Positions 1,838-63,587 of a stretch of DNA of 64,000 nucleotides are shown one piece after another. Every line of letters starts with the position of its first letter. Position 1 is the first letter of the stretch. Both the position numbers and the translations under genes were made by a program. This stretch comes from Eledone cirrhosa (lineage: Eukaryota). Under the pieces are notes generated by a model. The model was not told the DNA's origin. It ran no database searches and saw only the letters and a program-made list of their open reading frames with translations. Location of the stretch: contig OZ024746.1 of assembly GCA_964016885.1 (NCBI GenBank), forward strand, positions 50,902,001-50,966,000, written 5' to 3'.

Positions 1838-2822
1838 AGGAAAATTATTTGGTTCACACCCAGCTTCTCTCTAACTGTCAAAACTAATGTAGGAAGGAAA
1901 TTCCTTGAACTCTTAGATAAACATTTTACTCCTAATCATAGATATTATAAGATATTTAATAGGAACGTAGTTAAGATCAGTTACTCTTTTTGCCCATCTA
2001 TGAAGTCCAAGATCACTAGTTCAAATCATACGAGATCAAATCCAGGATGCAGTTACAGGAAGCCGGATGAATGCTCATTGCAGGGCAAATGTAACACCAA
2101 ATCTGTTGTTTATGAGGCTAAAATAACACCGTTAATCAACAACCAGCCAGCCAGCCAGGAGTGAGCGATATGTCGGCATGATCCAGGACAGGTTGTACTC
2201 ACATGTCGCTTCTTTTAAGCACTCCGAAAAACGAACAACAACAGCCCTCGCAAGTAAGGTGTGGGAATTCAAGGATAATAACATCCCGTACTCTATCGGT
2301 TGGTCTATTTTAGACCATTTGAGGGAGTACCAAAAGGGGCACAGAATTGTTCTTTGTGTACCACAGAAAAATATAGGATTTTGCTAAACTCTAAAGCCAC
2401 TTCTGCTTGCCTGAACTCAATGACCGAGATCTTCAGATGTTGTCCTCATCTGAAATCACATCTGATCTGTAACTGGATTGACATTCCTATGATAACTCAA
2501 CCGCCTTGAACTTCTCTGCTCTTTACTTCTACTACGGTTTTTTTACCTGCTGAATCCACGTTCTGCACTCTTGTATTCTCTTTCTCCCTTATCTCCCCTT
2601 ATATTTAACCTTTTCCTATGTCCTTTTCCCCCTTTCCCCCCCTATATTTTTTGCCTTACCCTTCACATACCATAATGTATGTGTATATATATATGTGTGT
2701 GTATGTGTATATATATGGATAGACCAGGATTTTTTCATTCTGATGATTGAAGGAAACATTTTTTGCTTTTAAGAAACCACTGGTAAATGGAATAATTGCC
2801 TTTTATTGTTTATTAAATAACT
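1838..2822 (+). mobile_element. Penelope-like element (Naiad-like), decayed 3' fragment: GIY-YIG region plus terminal repeat
   Basis: Broken frames give IIWFTP..KFLELLDKHF..YYKIFNRN, GCSYRKPDECSLQGKCNTKSVVYEA, HSEKRTTTALASKVWEFKD and CSLCTTEKYRIL..CCPH; hammerhead at 2736-2789. Confidence 0.85.
2736..2789 (+). ncRNA. Type I hammerhead ribozyme (PLE terminal repeat)
   Basis: CATT-CTGATGA-stem II-GAAA-CC(ACT)GG-TA-AATG. Confidence 0.7.
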
Positions 2823-3311
2823 ATATATATAGATATATATATATAGCCTCAGAAAAGGCTTGAGCTCTGCCGTAGGGTCAGGCTTCTTCCTATGTGTGTG
2901 TATATATATATATATATATGTATATGTATATATACGTTTTTGTATGTGTGTTTGTATTTCTGTGGTTGGGTTTTTGTGTGTGTGTGTGTGTGTATGTATA
3001 TATTTGTATGTGTGTGTGTGTGTGTGTATATGTATAATTGTATTAGGGTGTATGTATGTGCATCATTACATATAGTGATTTGATGAATATTAACCTCAAC
3101 GGGATTTGAGTTCAAATCCCGTCGAGGTTAACTTTGCCTTTCATCCTTACGGGGTCGCTAAAATAAAGTAGCAGTAGTGTACTGGGTAATTGCTGGCCTT
3201 GTGCCAAAAGTAGAAACAATTATATATAGTGATTTGATGAATATTTTCATTGATCTTTTGCTCCATGAACTTGTTGAGTGCTCTAGGTCTGCTATGGGCA
3301 TTTATACCCTT

Positions 3312-4500
<1,189 letters not shown>

Positions 4501-4615
4501 CATGTGTGTTTTTATTTTATTTTTCCTTTCCTTCTTCCTTCTCCAGCCTCAGTTTCATATAGACTGCATTTTTGTTTTTTAAGAATCCAATTCAATAAAT
4601 AGACCAGGATTTTTT

Positions 4616-4669
4616 CATTCTGATGATTGAAAGCAAAATCTTTTGCTTTTAAGAAACCACTGGTAAATG
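4616..4669 (+). ncRNA. Type I hammerhead ribozyme, second copy of the 2736 family
   Basis: CATT-CTGATGA-TTGAAAGCAAAA/TTTTGCTTTTAA (long stem II)-GAAA-CC(ACT)GG-TA-AATG; GUA cleavage triplet. Confidence 0.8.
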
Positions 4670-4853
4670 GAATAATTGCCTTATGTTGTTTATTACATAA
4701 CTATATATATATATTTATATATATATTTATATATATATATGTATATATTTATATATATATTTATATATATATATGCCCACTACTAATTTTCATAGAAAAA
4801 GCATATAACGATATGTGCTTTTACGATTCTCTAGAAAGGCCGGAAGATAGGTA

Positions 4854-4898
4854 AATATTGCTGATGAGATGTAACAACATCGAAACTAGTCCAATATT
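4854..4898 (+). ncRNA. Minimal type I hammerhead ribozyme
   Basis: AATATTG-CTGATGA-GATGT(AACA)ACATC-GAAA-CTAG-TC-CAATATT. 7-bp stem I, 5-bp stem II, palindromic ACTAGT stem III, GUC cleavage after 4891. Confidence 0.92.
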
Positions 4899-5226
4899 CC
4901 TTGTCTGGCTTTCTGGAGAATAGAGGAAAGGTGTTTCCTCGAAAACCAGTATGACTCTAAAAACCGGTTTGTCTGTGTGTTTACATACAGAATAGCTGGA
5001 CACTCACAGTAAAGTGTCCAGTGAAAAACTCGGTACATCTACATATGTACACGTGTGTGTATTCATATGCATACTAGTATTTCAGTATACATATGTGGAT
5101 GTACATTTTTAACTGAATTGTTTAAGCGTCAGTCATACAAAAGTGAGTTACAAACGAAACGAAATTTAATTTCGTTTCGTTATTTGTTTTTATCGTCTCC
5201 GCTGAACCGGTACGTACTCACGCTCT

Positions 5227-5234
5227 ATGCAAAT
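5227..5234 (+). promoter_or_regulatory. Octamer motif ATGCAAAT conserved between retrozyme-like families A and B
   Basis: 100 nt upstream of the hammerhead core. Also at 40348-40355, 46904-46911 and 62548-62555 (minus) and 47292-47299 (plus) in family A. Function is inferred. Confidence 0.45.
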
Positions 5235-5319
5235 TAGTCTGCCCACTACTAATTTTCATAGAAAAAGCATATAACGATATGTGCTTTTACGATTCTCTAG
5301 AAAGGCCGGAAGATAGGTA

Positions 5320-5364
5320 AATATTGCTGATGAGATGTAACAACATCGAAACTAGTCCAATATT
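5320..5364 (+). ncRNA. Minimal type I hammerhead ribozyme (identical second copy)
   Basis: Same sequence as 4854-4898, shifted by 466; predicted cleavage after 5357. Confidence 0.92.
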
Positions 5365-5666
5365 CCTTGTCTGGCTTTCTGGAGAATAGAGGAAAGGTGT
5401 TTCCTCGAAAACCAGTATGACTCTAAAAACCGGTTTGTCTGTTTGTTTACATACAGAATAGCTGGACACTCACACTAAAGTGTCCAGTGAAAAACTCGGT
5501 ACATCTACATATGTACACGTGTGTGTATTCATATGCATACTAGTATTTCAGTATACATATGTGGATGTACATTTTTAACTGAATTGTTTAAGCGTCAGTC
5601 ATACAAAAGTGAGTTACAAACGAAACGAAATTTAATTTCGTTTCGTTATTTGTTTTTATATATATA

Positions 5667-5783
<117 letters not shown>

Positions 5784-6003
5784 TTATATATATATATATT
5801 TATATATAAATGACTGTATATATATATATTTATATATATATATTTATATATAAATGACTGTTGTTTCATGTAAACAAACATTTGTCTCATTCTGACGTCA
5901 CCAGCCCTGTTTTTCCACATGTGCGTTTATTTTAATAACCACGCATGATGTTAAACTAGCCTGCTTTTAAATTCCCTTTTTGGCATATTGGTTACCATGT
6001 TGA

Positions 6004-6085
6004 GCTCTGCTGAGGAACGAAATCCAACCGTGACCATCTCTACTGAAAGTTTTCGTGAAATAGTCTTTTCAAGACTATACAGAGC
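6004..6085 (+). ncRNA. Type I hammerhead ribozyme with full stem III
   Basis: GCTCTG-CTGAGGA-ACGAAA..TTTCGT-GAAA-TAGTCTT(TTC)AAGACTA-TA-CAGAGC. Confidence 0.8.
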
Positions 6086-32202: not shown

Positions 32203-33390
32203 ATGTTTCTATTGATGCGAAAACGCAAGAGAACGTTAACTATGGTGACTGCAGGCATCATCTTTGCTCTGCCGTCACCATTTTTCATGGTATTTATCTG
32301 TGCTGTTATAACTATTCTTATTTACAGCTGGAAGTTCTTCCAGATCAGCGATGCCATGCCAGTCGCTTATTACAAGGAGTCAGCTCTAGCGACACACATC
32401 AAGAAAAAATGCAGGCAACTTTGTCAGCCGTTTAAGCCAACCTTATGGCTCAGGAACAACCACGTTCAAACCTTGATTTCACCATGGCTGTCCAACCCAC
32501 ATGTGCAATACGAAAGAGAGTATTTACAGATGAGGGACCGCGGTATTGTTTCCCTCGATTGGGCATCGATCCGAGACAGACGTATTCGAGAAACGAACAC
32601 CGTCTTTATTATTATCCCGGATGTGGCTCGTGATGCAACCAGCGTTAGCCGGTTAACAAGACACGCAGCTGACAGAGGTTTTCGTGTGGTCGTCTTCAAC
32701 CGACGAGGTCACGCTAACAGTTTCTTGACTTCCCCTAAACTACAAGGTTTCGGAGACCCGACAGATTTGAGACAAGTGGTCAAATATATCCGGGGAGTTT
32801 ATAGCCGAGCCAATTTGGTGGCGGTAGCGATAGGAACGGGCAGCGGCCTATTACTTTCCTATCTTGGCGAATACGGTTCTTCAGCCCATCTCGCCGCTAG
32901 TGTGTGTGTTTCTGCCTGCTACGAAGCGCAGGAAATGTTAGGGAAAGACTTGAAGAATATATACGACTTTTTCTACCTCCTTAGACAAAAGAAGGCCTTG
33001 AGCTCTCACGTGCCGGCTCTCACCGGTCACTTAGATTTACTGTCATTGTTTAACAGTTGGACATTTCGTGACTTCGACGAGAAGCTGTACTGTAAGATGC
33101 ACGGACACAAATCTATAGAAGAATATTGGGAGCGAAATAACCCGATGAGAGACGCAGATGATATAGCTGTACCACTGATGTGTATCAACAGTCTCGATGA
33201 TCCAATGTTTCCTAAAAGCAATATCCCTTATGATCTGTTTAAATGTTACCCCAACCTATTTCTTGTGGTCACCGAAAAAGGGGGGCACTGCGGTTTCATC
33301 GAGAACTTGACGGCTGCAGTGTCGTGGGCCGAGTGTTTAACAATTCGCTATATCGAGGCTGTGTTGGACGCTCAACTTAAAATAAAATAA
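32203..33390 (+). CDS. ABHD15: Alpha/beta hydrolase domain protein, ABHD15-like (ABHD1/2/3/15 family), single coding exon with N-terminal membrane anchor
   Basis: 395-aa ORF: NNHVQT, YEREYLQMRDRGIVSLDW, VVVFNRRGH, AVAIGTGSGLLLSYLGEYGSS (no GxSxG serine, as I recall for ABHD15), SLDDP and GGHCGF. True start may be the ATG at 32242. Confidence 0.88.
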   Translation: MFLLMRKRKRTLTMVTAGIIFALPSPFFMVFICAVITILIYSWKFFQISDAMPVAYYKESALATHIKKKCRQLCQPFKPTLWLRNNHVQTLISPWLSNPHVQYEREYLQMRDRGIVSLDWASIRDRRIRETNTVFIIIPDVARDATSVSRLTRHAADRGFRVVVFNRRGHANSFLTSPKLQGFGDPTDLRQVVKYIRGVYSRANLVAVAIGTGSGLLLSYLGEYGSSAHLAASVCVSACYEAQEMLGKDLKNIYDFFYLLRQKKALSSHVPALTGHLDLLSLFNSWTFRDFDEKLYCKMHGHKSIEEYWERNNPMRDADDIAVPLMCINSLDDPMFPKSNIPYDLFKCYPNLFLVVTEKGGHCGFIENLTAAVSWAECLTIRYIEAVLDAQLKIK

Positions 33391-38138: not shown

Positions 38139-38683
38139 TTAGAAATTATAAGCTTTCACCGTATTTTTAGACTAAAGAAATTTCTAGCCTGATAGTGGGG
38201 TTTATAACCCTTGGAGAAATGGAAAAAGATGAGTGTTGCCGTACATGGGAGTCGAACCCACATTTTTGGTTATCCAGACCACTGTGCTACCATTACACCA
38301 ATACACATCCCATCTCTTTCCATTCGAATTAGAAGCTATGAACTTAGCAAGTGAATGATAAACAAGCAAATTATAAACGTAAACATGTAAGTATGTTTTT
38401 GAAGCGGTGCGCGAGTTTGAAATTAGAAATTAGTGGTGTAATGGTAGCACAGTGGTCTGGATAACCAAAGATGTGGGTTCGACTCCTATGTACGGCAACA
38501 CTCATCTTTTTCCATTTCTCCGAGGGTTATAAACCCCACTATCAGGCTAGAAATTTCTTTAGTCTAAAAATACGGTGAAAGCTTATAATTTCTAATTTCT
38601 AATTTCAAACTCGCGCACCGCTTCAAAAACATACTTACATGTTTACGTTTATAATTTGCTTGTATATATATATATATATATAC

Positions 38684-39989: not shown

Positions 39990-39995
<6 letters not shown>

Positions 39996-41013
39996 AGTAT
40001 GTATGTATGTATGTATACGTACATACATATATGTATACAGACGTACAGTAGTATGTATATATATATACATACATGCACACATATATATATATGCACGTAT
40101 CGGTTTACCGAACATTTATTATAATGCTCGGTTTGTTTGTTTGTAAACAAACAAACAAACAAACAGCCCCAATTACGCCGTACAGTGTTTAGGCAACCAC
40201 GTCACCTTTTTGTTCAACACTGACACAGGAACGATGTACTAGTTTCAAGCTTATTAGCTATCGTCAGCATCTTATACCTTCCTGCCAGATGGTTGAACGT
40301 CTGAAAGTATATTCTTTCCTTATGCATATTAACGGCTGAGCAGCCTAATTTGCATATCGAATGAGATCAGTCGGCTGGGCGCACCGAAAACGATAAATGG
40401 AATAGAATGAAACGAAATTTCATTTCTCACTCTTGGTACGGCACTTACTTAAATGTAACTATGTATGTATGTATACGTACATACATATATGTATACAGAC
40501 GTACAGTAGTATGTATATATATACATACATGCACACATATATATATGCACGTATCGGTTTACCGAACATTTATTATAATGCTCGGTTTGTTTGTTTGTAA
40601 ACAAACAAACAGCCCGAATTACGCCGTACAGTGTTTAGTGACTGATCTCACTCGATATCCAAATTAGGCTGCTCAGTCGTTAATATGCATAAGGAAAGTA
40701 TATACTTTCAGACGTTCAACCATCTGGCAGGAAGGTATACGATGCTGACGATAGCTAATAAGCTTGAAGGTGACGTGGTTGCCTAACAATGTACGGCGTA
40801 ATTCGGGCTGTTTGTTTGTTTACAAACAAACAAACCGAGCATTATAATAAATGTTCGGTAAACCGATACGTGCATATATATATGTGTGCATGTATGTATA
40901 TATATACATACTACTGTACGTCTGTATACATATATGTATACATACATACATACTTACATTTAAGTAAGTGCCGTACTAAGAGTGAGAAATGAAATTTCGT
41001 TTCATTCTATTCC

Positions 41014-41019
<6 letters not shown>
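39990..41019. mobile_element. Retrozyme-like element, family A (~463-bp unit): about 1.4 tandem copies then an inverted copy
   Basis: Head-to-tail junction ..CACTTACTTAAATGTAACTATGTATG.. at about 40445-40470; hammerhead 40231-40271 (-); the inverted copy 40640-41019 has a deletion through its ribozyme. Confidence 0.82.
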
Positions 41020-41053
<34 letters not shown>

Positions 41054-46825: not shown

Positions 46826-47424
46826 CTTCAAGCTATCGTCAACAACATATACCTTCCTGCCAGATTGTTGAACGTATATGCATATTAACAGCTGAGAAGC
46901 CCAATTTGCATATCGAGTGGGTTAATCGGCCGGGTGTACCGAAAAGGATAAACGGAAAAAATGAAACGAAATTTCATTTCCCACTCTTAGTACGGCTGTT
47001 ACTTAAATATAAGTATGTACACGTACATACATATATGTATACAGACGTACAGTTGTATATATATATACATACATGCACACATATATATATGTACGTATGG
47101 ATTCACCGAACATTTGTTATAATGCTCGGTGTGTTTGTAAACAAACATCCCGTATTAAGCCGTAGTGTCCAGCAACCGTCGTTGTACATACTTATATTTA
47201 AGTAACAGCCGTACTAAGAGTGGGAAATGAAATTTCGTTTTATTTTTCCGTTTATTGTTTTCGGTGCACCCGGCCGATTAACCCACTCGATATGCAAATT
47301 GGGCTTCTCAGCTGTTAATATGCATATGGTAAGTATATACGTTCAACAATCTGGCAGGAAGGTATACGTTGTTGACGATAGCTAATAAGCTTGAAACTAG
47401 TACAGCGTTCTTTTGTCAGTGTTG
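46826..47424. mobile_element. Diverged retrozyme family A copy as an inverted pair; hammerhead 47367-47407 (C3U variant)
   Basis: Permuted relative to 39990-40460 and reads through the monomer junction; CGTTG-TTGACGA-TAGCTAATAAGCTT-GAAA-CTAG-TA-CAGCG. Confidence 0.8.
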
Positions 47425-49200
47425 GAGTACCCTATACTTGAGTCCTTGAGGGACCATACGCGGCTCGCGAGTTTCGTGGATGAACGTCTGTCCGGGTATA
47501 TGAAGGTAGACTGGTGGTTCAGGAAACGCTCCTTGAATCGGCCCTCCGCCATGCCCACATAGAATTTGACCTCCTGTGGTTCGTTTGGTCGGTTGGAAGT
47601 GACGACAGCTTCATAGATTACAGCTGGTGTGTTGCATTGTTGCTGAAGGGGGCAGGCTTCAGGCTTACGGAAAGAGCACCCTGGTGGGGTGTTGCTCCTA
47701 GGGCTGCTGGTGATGTGGGCCTTCATGTTCTTAGCGCAGGAGTATCCTAGTTTAACTTTATGTCGGTTAAAGATGGAGCGGTATTTATGACCTATGGAGA
47801 AGTGTCTATCTAAGAGGGCTAGACATTTTTTTCCTTCATTGGTTTTAACGTTGAGTGAGAAGGGAGGAGAGAACCAGATAGTTTGTCTATTGATGCGCTT
47901 ACTTTTCTTAATGGTGTTGTTGCTAGTGGGAGAGTAGGTGATAGGTTGTGAGAAGCCGCTGTTAGCCAACGCCGTGTTATAGTAGGGTGCCGCCCTGTCA
48001 AAGAAAGCCTTATTAGAGGAGAGGTTTGAGATTCTAGTACTGATATTATTTACGAAGTTTCTAAAAACAGTGTTAGGGTGGCATGAGTCCTTGTGAATGT
48101 AATTAAGTTTCTCGTTTAGCTTATGGAAGGGTCTGTGGGTGTGTGTGCGAAGGTCTAAATTAATGTCTAAGAAATCTACGCTAGAGACATTAGTGGCTAC
48201 TGTTATCCTAAGGCCTAACTCACTGAGGGTAGAAGCTAAGTCTTTTTTAAACCGGTCGAGGTCGTGACCACTTTTATGGCTCGATAAAGTCAGTCCATCG
48301 TCACGGTATATTCCCGCGTGGAGGTCCGGGAATCTAACACGTAATATGTCTAAGATAAAAAGGCCAACCAAGTCACATACGTCAGCGCTGTCAAACGATC
48401 CTATGGAGACGTCGAACAGGTCTGAAGATGTAGACTTCTTTGCCCAGGCTACTCCGTTGTTGAAGAGGAGGGTTTTCCAGCAGTGAGCGATGATTTCCCT
48501 GTCTAAACCATCGAGGGTGGTATAAGTGGTAGCGAAGTCCAACGCTTTGTTTAACAGGGTCTCTGAGATCGACGGGTAAAAATCGACAATGTCAAACTGT
48601 GTGAACTTCGCTTTCTTGGATTTTAAGGAGTTAAACCACTTAATTACGGAGTCGCTGTTCTCCCACTGGGGCAGATTGGACTTGGTCCTAAGGGTCTTAA
48701 CTATGTTTCTAAGTATGGGCTTACTGACTAGTCCCATATCTGTGCGTGCCGGGTTTATTAGTCTACATGTGGGGTTAGAAGTAAAGTCTACCTTGTGATC
48801 TTTCAGGGTGAGGAACGCCTCCCGCTTAGCTAGAGATTGTAGCTTCTTATCTACCTTAAGGTCGGTGGCGAGTTCCTTGGCTTCTGTATTAATGTCATGG
48901 TAGGCCATAGGGTTAGCTTTCTTATATTTAGGAGTAATAGCGTTATGGGCCAGGTGGCGGAAAGTGGTGTTGTCGACTTCGTAAATATTATTAGTTTTGT
49001 CGGAAAGGACGAAGGTGTTATTAGAAAACCTAAATTTCTTGATATCGTTTCTGAGTTTCGTTTGAAAGGTGTTAGTGTGTTTGCGAAAGGAAATGTTAGC
49101 GACTAAGTCAAGAAGGTCCGTCTCGAAAGGAGCAAGTTCGGTTACCTTAGGAGGGTAGGTTCTCGATTTCGGGTTGAAGGTGTTCCGGACTTTCGCAGTT
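47425..49200 (-). mobile_element. Young Naiad-like PLE ORF (RT plus GIY-YIG), truncated at both ends
   Basis: The frame stays open upstream of the listed ATG to about 49200 (FETDLLDLV..SDKTNNIYEV). QFDIVDFYPSI, GIYRDDGL, FLDINL, VIYEA..FYVGMAEGRFKERFLNH. Lacks the terminal CxxC..CxH. Confidence 0.93.
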
Positions 49201-49312
49201 ATCTCCCTTACACTCCCCGCACGCAGTCTAGTATTGCCTATGTGAAGTGACCGAGTTTCTGCGCATGCGCGCTCGTACGGTTGTCCTTCCTGTTCCTATA
49301 ACCATTCACATC

Positions 49313-49352
49313 CCGAGCTGAAGATCCGCGAAGGTGAAACAATTGTTCTCGG
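49313..49352 (+). ncRNA. Minimal type I hammerhead in an inverted terminal repeat (49200-49450) at the PLE 5' junction
   Basis: CCGAG-CTGAAGA-TCC(GCGAA)GGT-GAAA-C-AATT-G-TT-CTCGG. Confidence 0.8.
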
Positions 49353-57796: not shown

Positions 57797-57862
<66 letters not shown>

Positions 57863-57928
57863 GGAATAGAATGAAACGAAATTTCATTTCTCACTCTTAG
57901 TACGGCACTTACTTAAATGTATGTATGT

Positions 57929-60900
57929 GTTTTCTCTTTCTCTTAATTTCGAGTATATTTTTTTGACCGGCCACCTTCCTGGTGGCAAGGTTGTAAAAGA
58001 AAAGAAATTGTCATCCCTTGAATCGCAAGAATGTTTTGCATATTTTGAAGGTGCCAGCTATCGCAGCCATTTGTAGACTATGAATTAGGGAGCTGCGCTT
58101 TTTGTCCGCAAATCCAAGTTCGGTCATACTTTGGTCCAAGAGGGTTGGTATATAACCCGTAGCACCAATAATGATGGGTATGAAGCTAAAGGTGTATCTT
58201 GGATACTGGATTTGTAAGCTCCTCATCAATGGTCCGTAGATGTCCTCCTTCTCCTGTATTTTTCTGACAACGTTTACATCAAGTGGGCAGCTGATCTCCA
58301 CAACAGAACACGTTTTCAATGTGTGGTCCCAAACTACAATATCAGGCCGGTTGTGCTTTAATTTGGTGGCTGTTTTTATTTTCAGGTTCCACCAGTATTC
58401 CTTAGTGCCATCTGTCTCAATATATTCTTCCTCGTTTGTTGTTAATTTTGTTTTCCGAAGTGCGTTCCAGATGGTTCTAGCTATCCCATCGTGTCTCATG
58501 GGGAGGTAGTAGCGAGATGACATTCTTTCGCAGCTGGCAACAATGTGGCTTACATCCTCGATCTTTGTTTTACATAGCCTACATTTATTGTCAGCTGCTG
58601 GCCCTCCTCTTTTGTGCAGCAGATATTTGGTAGGGAGTTCTTGTTCCTGTATTGCATAGAGATATCCCTCAAGGTGTGATGTCATAAACTTGTCGGAACT
58701 CCATGCCAGGCTTTTTGAGTGGTTTATCCCCTCTATGGTCTGTGTTTTACGTCTCAAGTATCCATGCACAACTTTCTCTGTAAATTGGTCAATTTTTTTT
58801 TCTTGTTTGAACATTGAATAGGATCTTCCGATTTCTCTGGGTGAGAGATTTATATCAGGCTTTATTCCATATCTCTCCTCCAGATCAGTCGCTATTCTAA
58901 TGATATTTCTTTTTTCATGCTCATAAACCTGAGCAAGATGGTCGCCAACCTTTTTCCTCTGTTGAAGGTGTTGCTTCAGTGTTACTATCCGGGTCTCATA
59001 TGTTGTTAATATTGATTTTAGACCCCGGCCACCTTCCTTGCGTGAGAAGTATAGCCTATCCACATCACCATTGATGTTAAAGTTCCCAGTAACACTGAGA
59101 AGTTTTCGAGTTCTAACATCCATCTCACTTAGTTCTTGCAATGACCAGTTCAGTAGGCCAAATGTTGGCGTTAGAATTGGCACAGCATAGGTATTGTGGG
59201 CAATGTATTTGTTGTATGCTGACAGTTCTGATGACCATATTTTTTTTACTCTTCTGAGGTATTCAGTTCTGGTTCTCTCCTTATTTATGGGTCCATCATA
59301 TCTGACATTCTCATCCTGTCCAAGATATCTGTAGTTGTCACCTGACTGCAGAGGTTGTATTGTCAGGCCGTTCATATCTAGATTTCTAGAGGAGGGCACA
59401 GCTCTTCCACGTTTTACTGCCAAATATGCACACTTGGACTCACCAAATTTCATTTTGATGTCGGTTGAAAATTGTGTAATGAGGTCCAATTGTTTCTTGA
59501 TGTCATTGATATTTGGCCCATACAACTTCAGGTCATCAACAAAGAAAAGATGGGAGATACTTCTGGGCCCACTTCTTTGTCCACCTTGTTTCCTGAGTAG
59601 GTAAGATAGTGGATTCAGTGAGAGAACGAAGAGTAGTACTGACAAGCTATCACCCTGAAAGATGCCCTTCTGGTAATGTATCCTATCAGTCTTAACCTGC
59701 TCCTTCTCACCTCTAAGGATCAAATTGGTGTACCAGTTCTTGGTCAGGCGTTCAACAGCAGCTACTAATGGTTGTGGGACTTTAGCTAACTGTAAAGCCT
59801 TAATAATCCACCCATGAGGTACACTATCAAATGCTTTTTGATAGTCCAGCCACACGACAGTCATGTTTCTGCGATTCTTTGTTGTTTTTTCCTGAATCAT
59901 TTTGTTAGTTAGTAGGTGATCTATGCAACCCTACACCTCCCTCTTTCCACCAGCTTGCTCAGGTGTTATGATGTTGTTGGTAGCATAGTGATCCTGTAAG
60001 AACAGGTTAAGGCACCCAGTATATAATTTATACATGATGTTTTGGCAGGCAATTGGGCGGTAATTTTTAGCAAGGGTGGTTTGGCTATTTTTGGGAATGA
60101 GGAGAGTAGTGGCAGTTGATAACCATCTGGGCAGTTCTTGTGTGCCCTTAATGGTTTCTGTAAACAGCCGTATGAGATCTTGCCGATAGAAAAGGAAATT
60201 CTTCAACCAGTATCCTGTAATGAGGTCTGGGCCTGGCGATTTCCTATTCGACATTTTCTGTAGAGCTGTTTCCAGTATTGACCCATCTATGTCATATTGT
60301 TTTGTCTGGACATGTTGGCAGTAGTCCTGTTCCAGTTGTTTTAGCCAATTAGCTTGTCTGTTGAATCCGTCATCCGTTTCCCATACAGATCTCCAGTAGT
60401 TCTCAACCTGTTCTTTTGAAGGGGTGTCGTTTACAGGGATTGAGCTTTTGCCACCGAAGCTGCGATAAACTGATTTAGGATCTCTGGCAAACAATCTATT
60501 TAGCACTTGTCGTTTATGGGCTGTTGACTTATATTTTAGTCTTTCTGTTGTAGCTGTGAGTTGTTGTTTCAACTGGTGTAATTTGGAGTTCAAAGTTTTA
60601 AATTTGGTATCTCCAAATCGTCTCTCTAACTTTTTCTTTAGGTCTTCCTGGTGTCGTGTGAAGTTTCTCTCTATGTTGCATTTCATAACGACTGCGATGT
60701 GTGAGATACTTCGTCTCAGGGACAAAATTTTGGTTTTTAAATTTCGCATCCACGCTGGTTCAGGCTTTCTGTTTGTATCTTGATTGCGTGGTTTTAGATG
60801 TGTGTTATATGATAGCAATGTGACAGCTGAAACATATAACAAAACATTGAGCGTTTCAAATGTCGTTTCTACACCTTTAGATCGTATAGCCTTCAGATAA

Positions 60901-62152
60901 TTGCCAGCTATTTCGTTCACCGCTTCCAATTCCAATTTAGTGGGTTCTTTACTGACTCTAGTGTTGTATGGTCTGTCACTCACATTAAGGCTGTGTATCT
61001 CTTGAAACATATCGTTCCATATCACTTGTAGGGTGCCCACAAGTTTTTGGTGCTCTGTTTGTTCAGTAGAGTCATGAATTGCAGCCTCGTTGTTGATGTG
61101 GTGACAATTACTACTAGAGTCAGCTGACCTTTCTCGCTGTTCTTCAGTGGAAGTGGGATGGATTTCAGCAAAATTGTTGGTGAGCTGTTCACTGTTAGAT
61201 TTAGCTGGCCATTCTCTTTGTCTGTCAGTGGAGGTGGGGTGGTTGTCTACAAGGGCTGTATTTGTAGTATCACTCGATTCCGTTAGATGTATCAATTTAC
61301 ATCTAATGATACGTTTTGCCTGTTCATTTAGATGCTTTGGAGAAAAGTCTAATTCTGGGTGTTTGGAGTTCCATAAAGTTTTTAGCCTTTGCATAAAACC
61401 GAACTTTTGGGGTTCAGATTGTTTGTATGCTTCATATAATTCTTTGTTAAGCTCGTAGCTCCACTGTATACAACGGTTGTAATTGCGATTTGGTCGAAGG
61501 AGACTTGTACTTTTTGCCATAATGAGTTCGTCTATTCACTAATATTTTGTATTTATTTTTTTTTAAATAGTCGATAATCTTCTTTAAAAGTTACGACAAA
61601 GTTCTGTCAGAATCAAATTTAAAGTTATTCACAGCTTGGGTAATATTTCTTTTCAGTTAGTTTTTAATTCTACAACTGTGTTTTAAACGTTGTTCTTGAA
61701 TCGTTTGAATCGAGAACAAAACGAACCGTTACTTAGTATATTCCTTTACGAATGTAATATAATATAACAACGCTGTATTTATATGTTAAAGTTTATGTAT
61801 CATTCATATAAATAGGTGTTCTACAACATATTCACAACATTCACAGTCTGAATCGAAAACGTTACTTTATATTTCTTTATAAATGTAATATAACAACGCT
61901 GCATTTATATGTTAAAGTATATGTATCGTTCATATATCATAAGTGTATGTATCGTTCATATAAATAGGTGTTTTACAACACACTTACAGTTCAAACACTT
62001 ATGTAGAATTATTGTATGTAATCTTACCGCGTAATGTAGCTCAACTTTTTCCAATATATGGTATGTTGCCTTCATGTAAGCCGTAATTACACACGTCCGA
62101 TTATCGGACACTGACCACAACGGTCGCCATTATGTATGATCTTCTTTAAAAG
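57929..62152 (-). mobile_element. Apparently full-length R4/Dong-clade non-LTR retrotransposon inserted in (CATA)n
   Basis: About 630-nt 5' UTR, single ORF, about 80-nt 3' UTR; ATGTATGT repeats on both flanks. Confidence 0.88.
58011..61520 (-). pseudogene. RT plus CCHC knuckle plus restriction-like endonuclease ORF with one in-frame stop (59931-59933)
   Basis: The 529-aa and 629-aa ORFs share a frame (GGKREV*GCIDHLL). KSPGPD, YRPIAC, WLDYQKAFDSVPH, GIFQGDSLS, LFFVDDLKLY, CRLC..H..C, RHD, RPDIV..VEISCP..EK. Confidence 0.93.

Positions 62153-63587
<1,435 letters not shown>

Follow-up and report, generated by a model that had tools for sequence, protein, structure and literature searches.

The stretch of DNA analysed here, 64,000 nt from the octopod Eledone cirrhosa (the window; GenBank assembly GCA_964016885.1, contig OZ024746.1, positions 50,902,001 to 50,966,000 of the forward strand), contains a short tandem array embedded in a (TA)n microsatellite. 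At 4774-5659, Tandem Repeats Finder gives a head-to-tail repeat with a period of 466 nt, 1.9 copies and 99% matches, and units 1 and 2 show 2 mismatches over the 420 positions that they have in common. The two nearly identical units described in an earlier note on this DNA are therefore confirmed, and so are its (TA)n flanks (4702-4774 and 5657-5852), which are, in addition, the target site of the insertion. A variant at unit position 342 is present in both window units and missing from 178 of the 179 full units compared. The features of the locus are the following:

4702..4773, no strand: left-hand portion of the target site, a (TA)n microsatellite; the element is truncated here at an arbitrary point of its 5' end, and no inverted arm can be seen
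4774..5239, + strand: complete repeat unit of 466 nt, numbered from 4774 as unit position 1, 37% GC
4828..4920, + strand: type I hammerhead 1 with extended helix I, predicted cut after C4891; its parts, all on the + strand, are helix I (4855-4860/4892-4897), core CUGAUGA (4861-4867), helix II (4868-4881), GAAA (4882-4885) and palindromic helix III (4885-4890)
4892..5357, + strand: predicted self-cleaved monomer and circle of 466 nt, highly folded, no Met-ORF longer than 56 aa
5033..5104, + strand: long hairpin, directly 5' of the putative priming site B
5119..5124, also 5585-5590, + strand: site B (unit 346/351), second fixed 3' end of the family, internal in the window copy
5120..5193, again 5586-5659, + strand: stretch of 69-74 nt (the 'tail') that separates site B from site A and includes the 13-bp hairpin 5153-5181
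5227..5234, + strand: ATGCAAAT motif, kept in the 466-nt family and in 9 of 15 sister-family units
5240..5659, + strand: second unit, positions 1-420, stopping at the fixed 3' end 'A' of the family
5294..5386, + strand: type I hammerhead 2, identical to hammerhead 1, predicted cut after C5357
5660..5852, no strand: right-hand portion of the (TA)n microsatellite target site, directly beside end A
39990-41020, 46830-47424, 57826-57928 and 62209-62960: copies of a sister family, with units of about 420-540 nt

The absence of an ORF had been noted before and is borne out, the longest Met-ORF on the 466-nt circle being 56 aa. Folding of the monomer 4892-5357 yields -159.3 kcal/mol (z -9.6, 0 of 100 shuffles equally good), and 68% of the nucleotides are paired in the predicted fold of the unit as a circle. 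The internal hairpins reported earlier, including a 13-bp stem, were located at 4996-5021, 5033-5104 (with one G-U pair) and 5153-5181. Matches to miRNA families were discarded, as they are far below the gathering scores and reflect TA-rich hairpins. A snRNA-type promoter in the unit, an idea prompted by the octamer ATGCAAAT and by newt satellite 2 (in passages of PMC2220036), was dropped after comparison with U2: no exact copy of the octamer occurs within 330 nt in the upstream regions of U2 in this genome, and a single one of 24 comparisons gave p 0.04. Contigs of four sequencing runs, of unspecified kind, span the unit, and in one of the runs loose ends of (TA)n follow 5124 and 5193. A closed contig of 495 nt from one run was considered as evidence for a circle and is uninformative, because a tandem array would assemble in the same way.

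GUC is found at 4889-4891 and 5355-5357, from which the predicted monomer 4892-5357 of 466 nt follows; the cuts after 4891 and 5357 proposed in the earlier note coincide with these positions, cleavage itself being predicted. The Rfam profile HH9 matches both units with 38.9 bits and E 5.4e-8 each (4843-4914 and 5309-5380). These scores are below the HH9 gathering score of 52, for which reason a default Rfam scan misses the two motifs. The motif had also been called a minimal type I hammerhead. Type I and the palindromic helix III stand, whereas 'minimal' does not, since the motif is canonical by the definition of PMC4209133. It has a helix I of 6 bp plus an internal loop, a short helix II of 5 bp and a palindromic helix III of 1-2 bp. 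The hammerheads of Penelope-like elements (PLEs) are, in contrast, mostly minimal, and those of PLE pLTRs are described in the passages concerned as having no helix III, a helix II of 7-8 bp and a helix I of 4-5 bp (PMC4209133), a set of dimensions that the 466-nt unit does not share.

Just 1 of the 17 core columns varies, compared with 93 variable columns out of 466 overall; at this column, core position 17, C is present in 60 loci and U in 32, with A in the sister family. Helix II shows a switch from A-U to U-A in 28 of 92 loci. Over 18 distinct sequences, 97.5% of the stem cells pair, two-sided changes occur in 11 of 22 pairs, and the covariation far exceeds that of slid controls, the covarying changes representing few independent events because most of them stem from one split between the two families. 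From the alignments, the invariant core and the compensatory changes appear to indicate selection on RNA structure, and the ribozyme core together with the covarying stems argues that cleavage is presumably selected. In ViennaRNA predictions the catalytic core is slightly misfolded, and no inter-unit pairing of helix III appears in the 1.9-mer.

A duplication unique to this locus, which the earlier note would have counted against its reading, is not what was found. The 3.0-Gb genome contains 2,200 exact junctions of end A with (TA)n (0 in the control), 356 + 355 exact junctions of end B, and 1,633 exact hammerhead cores of the 466-nt family; the unit itself gave at least 290 matches, with 40 of 314 candidate places scored. 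There are from 1 to 16+ head-to-tail units per arm, with no coding spacer, and the unit length of 466 nt lies within what is given for the tandem repeats of retrozymes (~150-450 bp, up to 972 in vertebrate surveys). It is a young family in an octopod genome. The sister family is ~64% identical to the 466-nt unit, is homologous to it across nearly the whole unit and has a similar branched fold. It also has homologous ends, six inverted loci with both ends called being A/B and one ambiguous. With its 24,469 exact hammerhead cores, it suggests that ribozyme-bearing repeats are a sizeable and still active part of the octopod genome. The sister copies in the window have a GUA cut site and U-U at the base of helix II. 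Those at 39990-41020 and 62209-62960 are mirror-image arrays in (TA)n, and both arms of the inverted copy at 62.2-62.96 kb seem B-like at their end.

For the study of insertion anatomy, 38 top-scoring loci, 60 position-ordered loci from the first A-end matches on contig C1 and the window were examined. L186 (a duplicate of L185) was dropped from the counts of variants, ends, duplications and cross-arm comparisons, L151 (too short) from the array-variant counts, L057 (two insertions merged) from the cross-arm variant tests, and L069-L070 for their overlap with L038. The arrays terminate at one of two places, end A at unit position 420 and end B at 346/351. A hairpin lies immediately 5' of each, (TA)n nearly always adjoins both, and the 5' ends are scattered. 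Mirror-image arrays make up 65 of the 102 clusters. Two internal 3' ends combined with an inverted 5'-truncated arm, as looked for in PLE-mobilised sequences, are present in 59 of these 65, which are A/B; none is A/A, none is B/B, and the other 6 have a damaged or cut end. The remaining, non-inverted clusters comprise 26 A-only, 9 B-only and 2 others. The A/B rule also applies to 24 of the 25 inverted arrays in the set not selected by ends, and a tiny inverted B stub, judged by eye, accompanies 11 of the 26 loci classed as A-only. The copy in the window is of the A-only kind, its start at 4774 being an arbitrary 5' truncation and its end at 5659 the fixed 3' end of the family. Target duplications of 13 bp (L058), 12 bp (L065) and at least 40 bp (L199) were observed, longer than the 4 bp that such duplications exceed in retrozymes when present; they are visible only off the pure microsatellite and unresolvable in (TA)n, the window copy included. 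The retrotransposition in trans that the earlier note proposed thus gains direct support, unforeseen in that note, from the two fixed internal 3' ends, the A/B pairing and the target duplications. There is also an enrichment of 5' ends at unit 361-390 (window 5134-5163), at the 13-bp hairpin, with 24 of 158 against ~10 expected, which may reflect either stalling of the reverse transcriptase (RT) or alignment ambiguity caused by the palindrome.

By analogy, the two fixed ends and the A/B rule match the two-start-site 'tail' geometry of Penelope-like RT. According to PMC11167929, the PLE RT uses two internal start sites, the interval between which is the tail, and purified PLE protein acts on AT-rich DNA by cutting and extending both of its strands. 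PLE insertions are described as partial tandems truncated at the 5' end, which frequently have an inverted arm, and a tail at just one end (bioRxiv 10.1101/2021.04.23.441226). Our family shares with PLEs, as presented in passages of these two sources, the two internal RT starts, the one-end tail, the cutting and extension of both strands, the AT-rich or (TA)n targets, the 5' truncation, the partial tandems and the inverted 5' arm. It differs from PLEs in having no ORF and in having arms that reach many units, and its tail measures 69-74 nt compared with the 30-40 bp usually cited for PLEs (bioRxiv 10.1101/2021.04.23.441226).

The locus is thus one of many copies of a family whose hammerhead is conserved, whose 3' ends lie at two fixed internal sites and whose 5' ends are random; its mirror-image arms pair A with B, and each array is uniform inside. 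We think it rather probable that the window copy is a 5'-truncated insertion of a non-LTR retrozyme, with a PLE enzyme likely acting in trans at (TA)n and a template that is probably a circular RNA. In the mechanism that we propose, tandem arrays would be transcribed and the transcripts cut by the hammerhead, probably aided by dimer pairing of the palindromic helix III, after which a host ligase would close 466-nt circles. A PLE RT/GIY-YIG protein would then cut both strands of an AT-rich target; one DNA end would prime at A and the other at B, immediately downstream of a hairpin in both cases. Each RT would circuit its template for a random distance (median ~500 nt, up to >7 kb), and the two cDNAs would be joined head to head, or one arm would be tiny or absent, as in the window. 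About even, in our opinion, are the chances of a more specific proposal, in which the arrays would be a fossil record of rolling-circle reverse transcription by a PLE on a ribozyme-made circle. Both ends of one DNA break would be primed at two fixed sites of the circle, each mirror array would record two independent RT runs, a few arrays would record dimer circles, and the 466-nt circle would be a minimal cargo, unrelated in sequence, for insertion at (TA)n by a PLE protein.

The genome does contain endonuclease-bearing autonomous PLEs, with RT and GIY-YIG ORFs, several of them with long open frames, and several autonomous families here likewise end at two sites in (TA)n. A search for Hydra-like PLEs gave 77,504 candidate places, of which 70 were scored, and a GIY-YIG search gave 10,597 candidates, of which 150 were scored, with Neptune-like and Poseidon-like families among these. 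The three clade names are presumed from motifs and do not come from a tree. No homology to the unit was found in 149 PLE 3' regions, a small candidate sample, and the Hydra-like, Neptune-like and Poseidon-like termini sampled showed neither homology to the 466-nt unit nor a partner with related ends. Other ACTAGT hammerhead matches, tried as a partner, were family variants or isolated motifs without a linked PLE ORF. Degenerate motifs of hammerhead type, with a TTGA.. core and an ACCGGT palindrome, occur in the 3' regions of the Neptune-like families of L131-L149, which also have two 3' ends in (TA)n and tails about 35-70 nt long.

At the 60 position-ordered A-end loci the sequence continues into further units and never into a protein-coding ORF. 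The attachment of all copies to a PLE ORF, which the earlier note named as an objection, is thus seen at 0 of 60 loci, and the unit does not flank an RT/GIY-YIG ORF as the terminal repeat of an autonomous PLE does. Since none of these 60 loci lies within a protein-coding element, we classify the family as a non-LTR retrozyme, and since there is neither an ORF in the 60 loci nor a homologous region among the 149 PLE 3' regions, as a non-autonomous element. PLE fragments in the neighbourhood of arrays appear to have inserted separately into the same (TA)n, L056 being the sole ambiguous case. At this locus (2367-6013) the 5' end of the array is fused, on the same strand and without (TA)n, to the end of a Hydra-like ORF plus a partial 3' UTR, and the inverted arm is the long end of that Hydra-like family. 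The fusion could be a template switch or a target deletion, and it is only a lead because L172 and L203 show neighbouring insertions deleting each other's ends.

It might still be argued that the unit is the pLTR of an unsampled autonomous Penelope-like element and that the arrays are its truncated by-products. PLE pLTRs bear hammerheads and the same end structure (bioRxiv 10.1101/2021.04.23.441226; PMC4209133), Xenopus retrozymes derive from pLTRs according to bioRxiv 10.64898/2026.07.22.740005, and only 150 of the 10,597 GIY-YIG and 70 of the 77,504 Hydra-like candidates were scored. We nevertheless judge this improbable: the 60 A-end loci lead into further units instead of an ORF, up to 16+ units follow head to tail without a coding spacer, homology to the sister family covers almost the entire unit, with a similar fold, and the PLE terminal repeats seen here bear different hammerheads. 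Satellites and Helitron/Helentron-like elements can likewise have tandem units, hairpins and flanking microsatellites, which counts in favour of a repeat formed at the DNA level (a satellite or a Helitron/Helentron-like rolling-circle element) with an incidental hammerhead. This we regard as very improbable, since the fixed 3' and random 5' ends, the A/B arms and the target duplications fit target-primed reverse transcription, and the invariant catalytic core with its compensatory changes points to selection on RNA structure.

The form of the template is a finer matter. Within 5 nt of the cut site (unit 119) there are 4 of 158 5' ends, with 3.7 expected, and stops at the cut site number 3 in 149 passages, with 2.1 expected and an upper bound of 5%; in the position-ordered sample, 46 of the 59 A arms and 30 of the 35 B arms extend past the site. 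Reverse transcription of a cleaved linear RNA would halt at unit 119, so the lack of an excess there leaves a ligated circle or an uncleaved multimer as the template. In the 70 loci with at least three units, 463 variant calls are fixed within the array, 43 are shared but unfixed and 273 are singletons. Eighteen fixed variants are private to one locus, 9 of them on both arms (a small sample, from 70 loci), and the cross-arm distance of 0.0066 is close to the same-arm distance of 0.0054. Such internally uniform arrays would fit a bottleneck of one unit. Derived variants common to both arms and unfixed were seen in 4 of 54 inverted loci (L047, L051, L053 and L062), a pattern that needs multimeric templates or later conversion; in L171, the fifth locus with a cross-arm derived variant, it is fixed in 8 of 9 units. 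The register test between arms with derived alleles was not significant (p 0.11). In L051, L053 and L068 the variants alternate every second unit along one arm, possibly as a trace of dimer templates.

The same element and the same two-site PLE priming could also operate on a linear template, a long multimer that is transcribed from arrays already present and stays uncleaved, with lengthening and homogenisation at the DNA level and a ribozyme that serves another step or rarely acts. Hammerhead mutants leave PLE insertion in vitro unaffected, the hammerhead being dispensable and unprocessed RNA being used (PMC11167929), and 8 of 9 Xenopus retrozyme dimers are reported without cleavage (bioRxiv 10.64898/2026.07.22.740005). 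Uncleaved RNA likewise yields no stop at the cut site and would account for the mixed arrays with variants on both arms at 4 of 54 inverted loci, long arrays carry locus-private variants in at least two units as a sign of later unequal exchange, and the weak helix III predicts slow cleavage of the monomer. Even so, we consider this route doubtful. Every subfamily would require long and uniform arrays as its source: different subfamilies have arrays of 13-18 units that are identical or nearly so (L040, L170 and L189). In addition, subfamily-diagnostic variants, up to 34 per locus, almost never mix within arrays. A functional dimeric ribozyme in such RNA should yield 5' ends at unit 119, where there is no pile-up, and the conserved core and covarying stems argue for selected cleavage. 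We therefore infer circularisation of the 466-nt RNA and hold a circle to be about twice as likely as a linear multimer.

Judged from DNA, the 466-nt family has every testable property of a metazoan non-LTR retrozyme, with self-cleavage and circles being predicted, and the interpretation given in the earlier note is supported. The retrozymes of PMC7229834 are likewise non-coding tandems of low GC and stable fold in which every unit carries a single canonical type I hammerhead. In its architecture the window motif seems to resemble most that of axolotl HHR_Amex1, which, like newt satellite 2, has a one-pair helix III under a palindromic tetraloop, as here, and which cleaves well only as a dimer (PMC7229834). 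The unit is longer here (466 nt versus 170-400 nt) and the host is an octopod; the main text of PMC7229834 names no octopods and mentions neither fixed two-site ends nor inverted arms. Expression and circles were shown for the retrozymes of that work, whereas the present family is known from DNA sequence alone. Xenopus and other vertebrate retrozymes, as presented in bioRxiv 10.64898/2026.07.22.740005, are also proposed to be non-autonomous PLE derivatives and range from monomers to multimers. Their link to PLEs consists in co-occurrence and pLTR homology, with tandems arising by a proposed local DNA amplification, whereas the link here is the insertion anatomy, with no homologous pLTR among the 149 PLE 3' regions.

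Several elements of this picture have been put forward already: the PLE ancestry of retrozymes (bioRxiv 10.64898/2026.07.22.740005), rolling-circle copying (PMC7229834; PMC4209133) and non-LTR retrozymes as circRNA templates for PLE RT (PMC7229834). In the literature covered, mostly outside subscription journals and repeat databases and with supplements that may list cephalopod families, no octopod retrozyme was found, and, in the same body of work, no fixed two-site ends or A/B inverted arrays of retrozymes; the same is true of passages of PMC7761336, PMC8490949 and PMC2220036. The copying of animal retrozymes into DNA is stated as unresolved in bioRxiv 10.64898/2026.07.22.740005 and PMC7229834, where the connection to PLEs is drawn from co-occurrence and homology and the circular template is put forward as a hypothesis. 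We think that the value of the present family lies in its insertion traces, which tie retrozymes to PLE chemistry. In thousands of young insertions, the ends name two RT start sites within a few bases and the lengths measure processivity, so that both the PLE link and the circular template become testable in the published PLE in vitro system.

Elsewhere in the window, a Hydra-like Penelope ORF with an open frame of 632 aa and no Pfam hit lies at 47397-49295 on the - strand; it has an inverted upstream terminal repeat that carries a hammerhead of its own at 49318-49350, and its 3' end abuts a sister-family copy. Hammerhead-like motifs gave 30 pattern matches in the window versus 3.3 expected, among them those at 2740, 4620, 18128, 35816, 36038, 52794, 55348, 63279 and 63713, which are probably remains of PLE terminal repeats. 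At 784-1447, three tandem 220-bp units without a hammerhead pattern match end against (TA)n, with an end that we take to resemble Helitron/Helentron-type repeats. An inverted pair of tRNA-like sequences (38240-38304, - strand, and 38434-38489, + strand) probably represents SINE heads, and 58011-61535 (- strand) holds a broken LINE-type reverse transcriptase ORF, in pieces in two frames, with an RVT_1 hit. Finally, a single-exon ABHD15-like hydrolase gene at 32203-33390 (+ strand) points to an octopod host, since its product shares 90% identity with a protein of Octopus and 86% with one of Argonauta.
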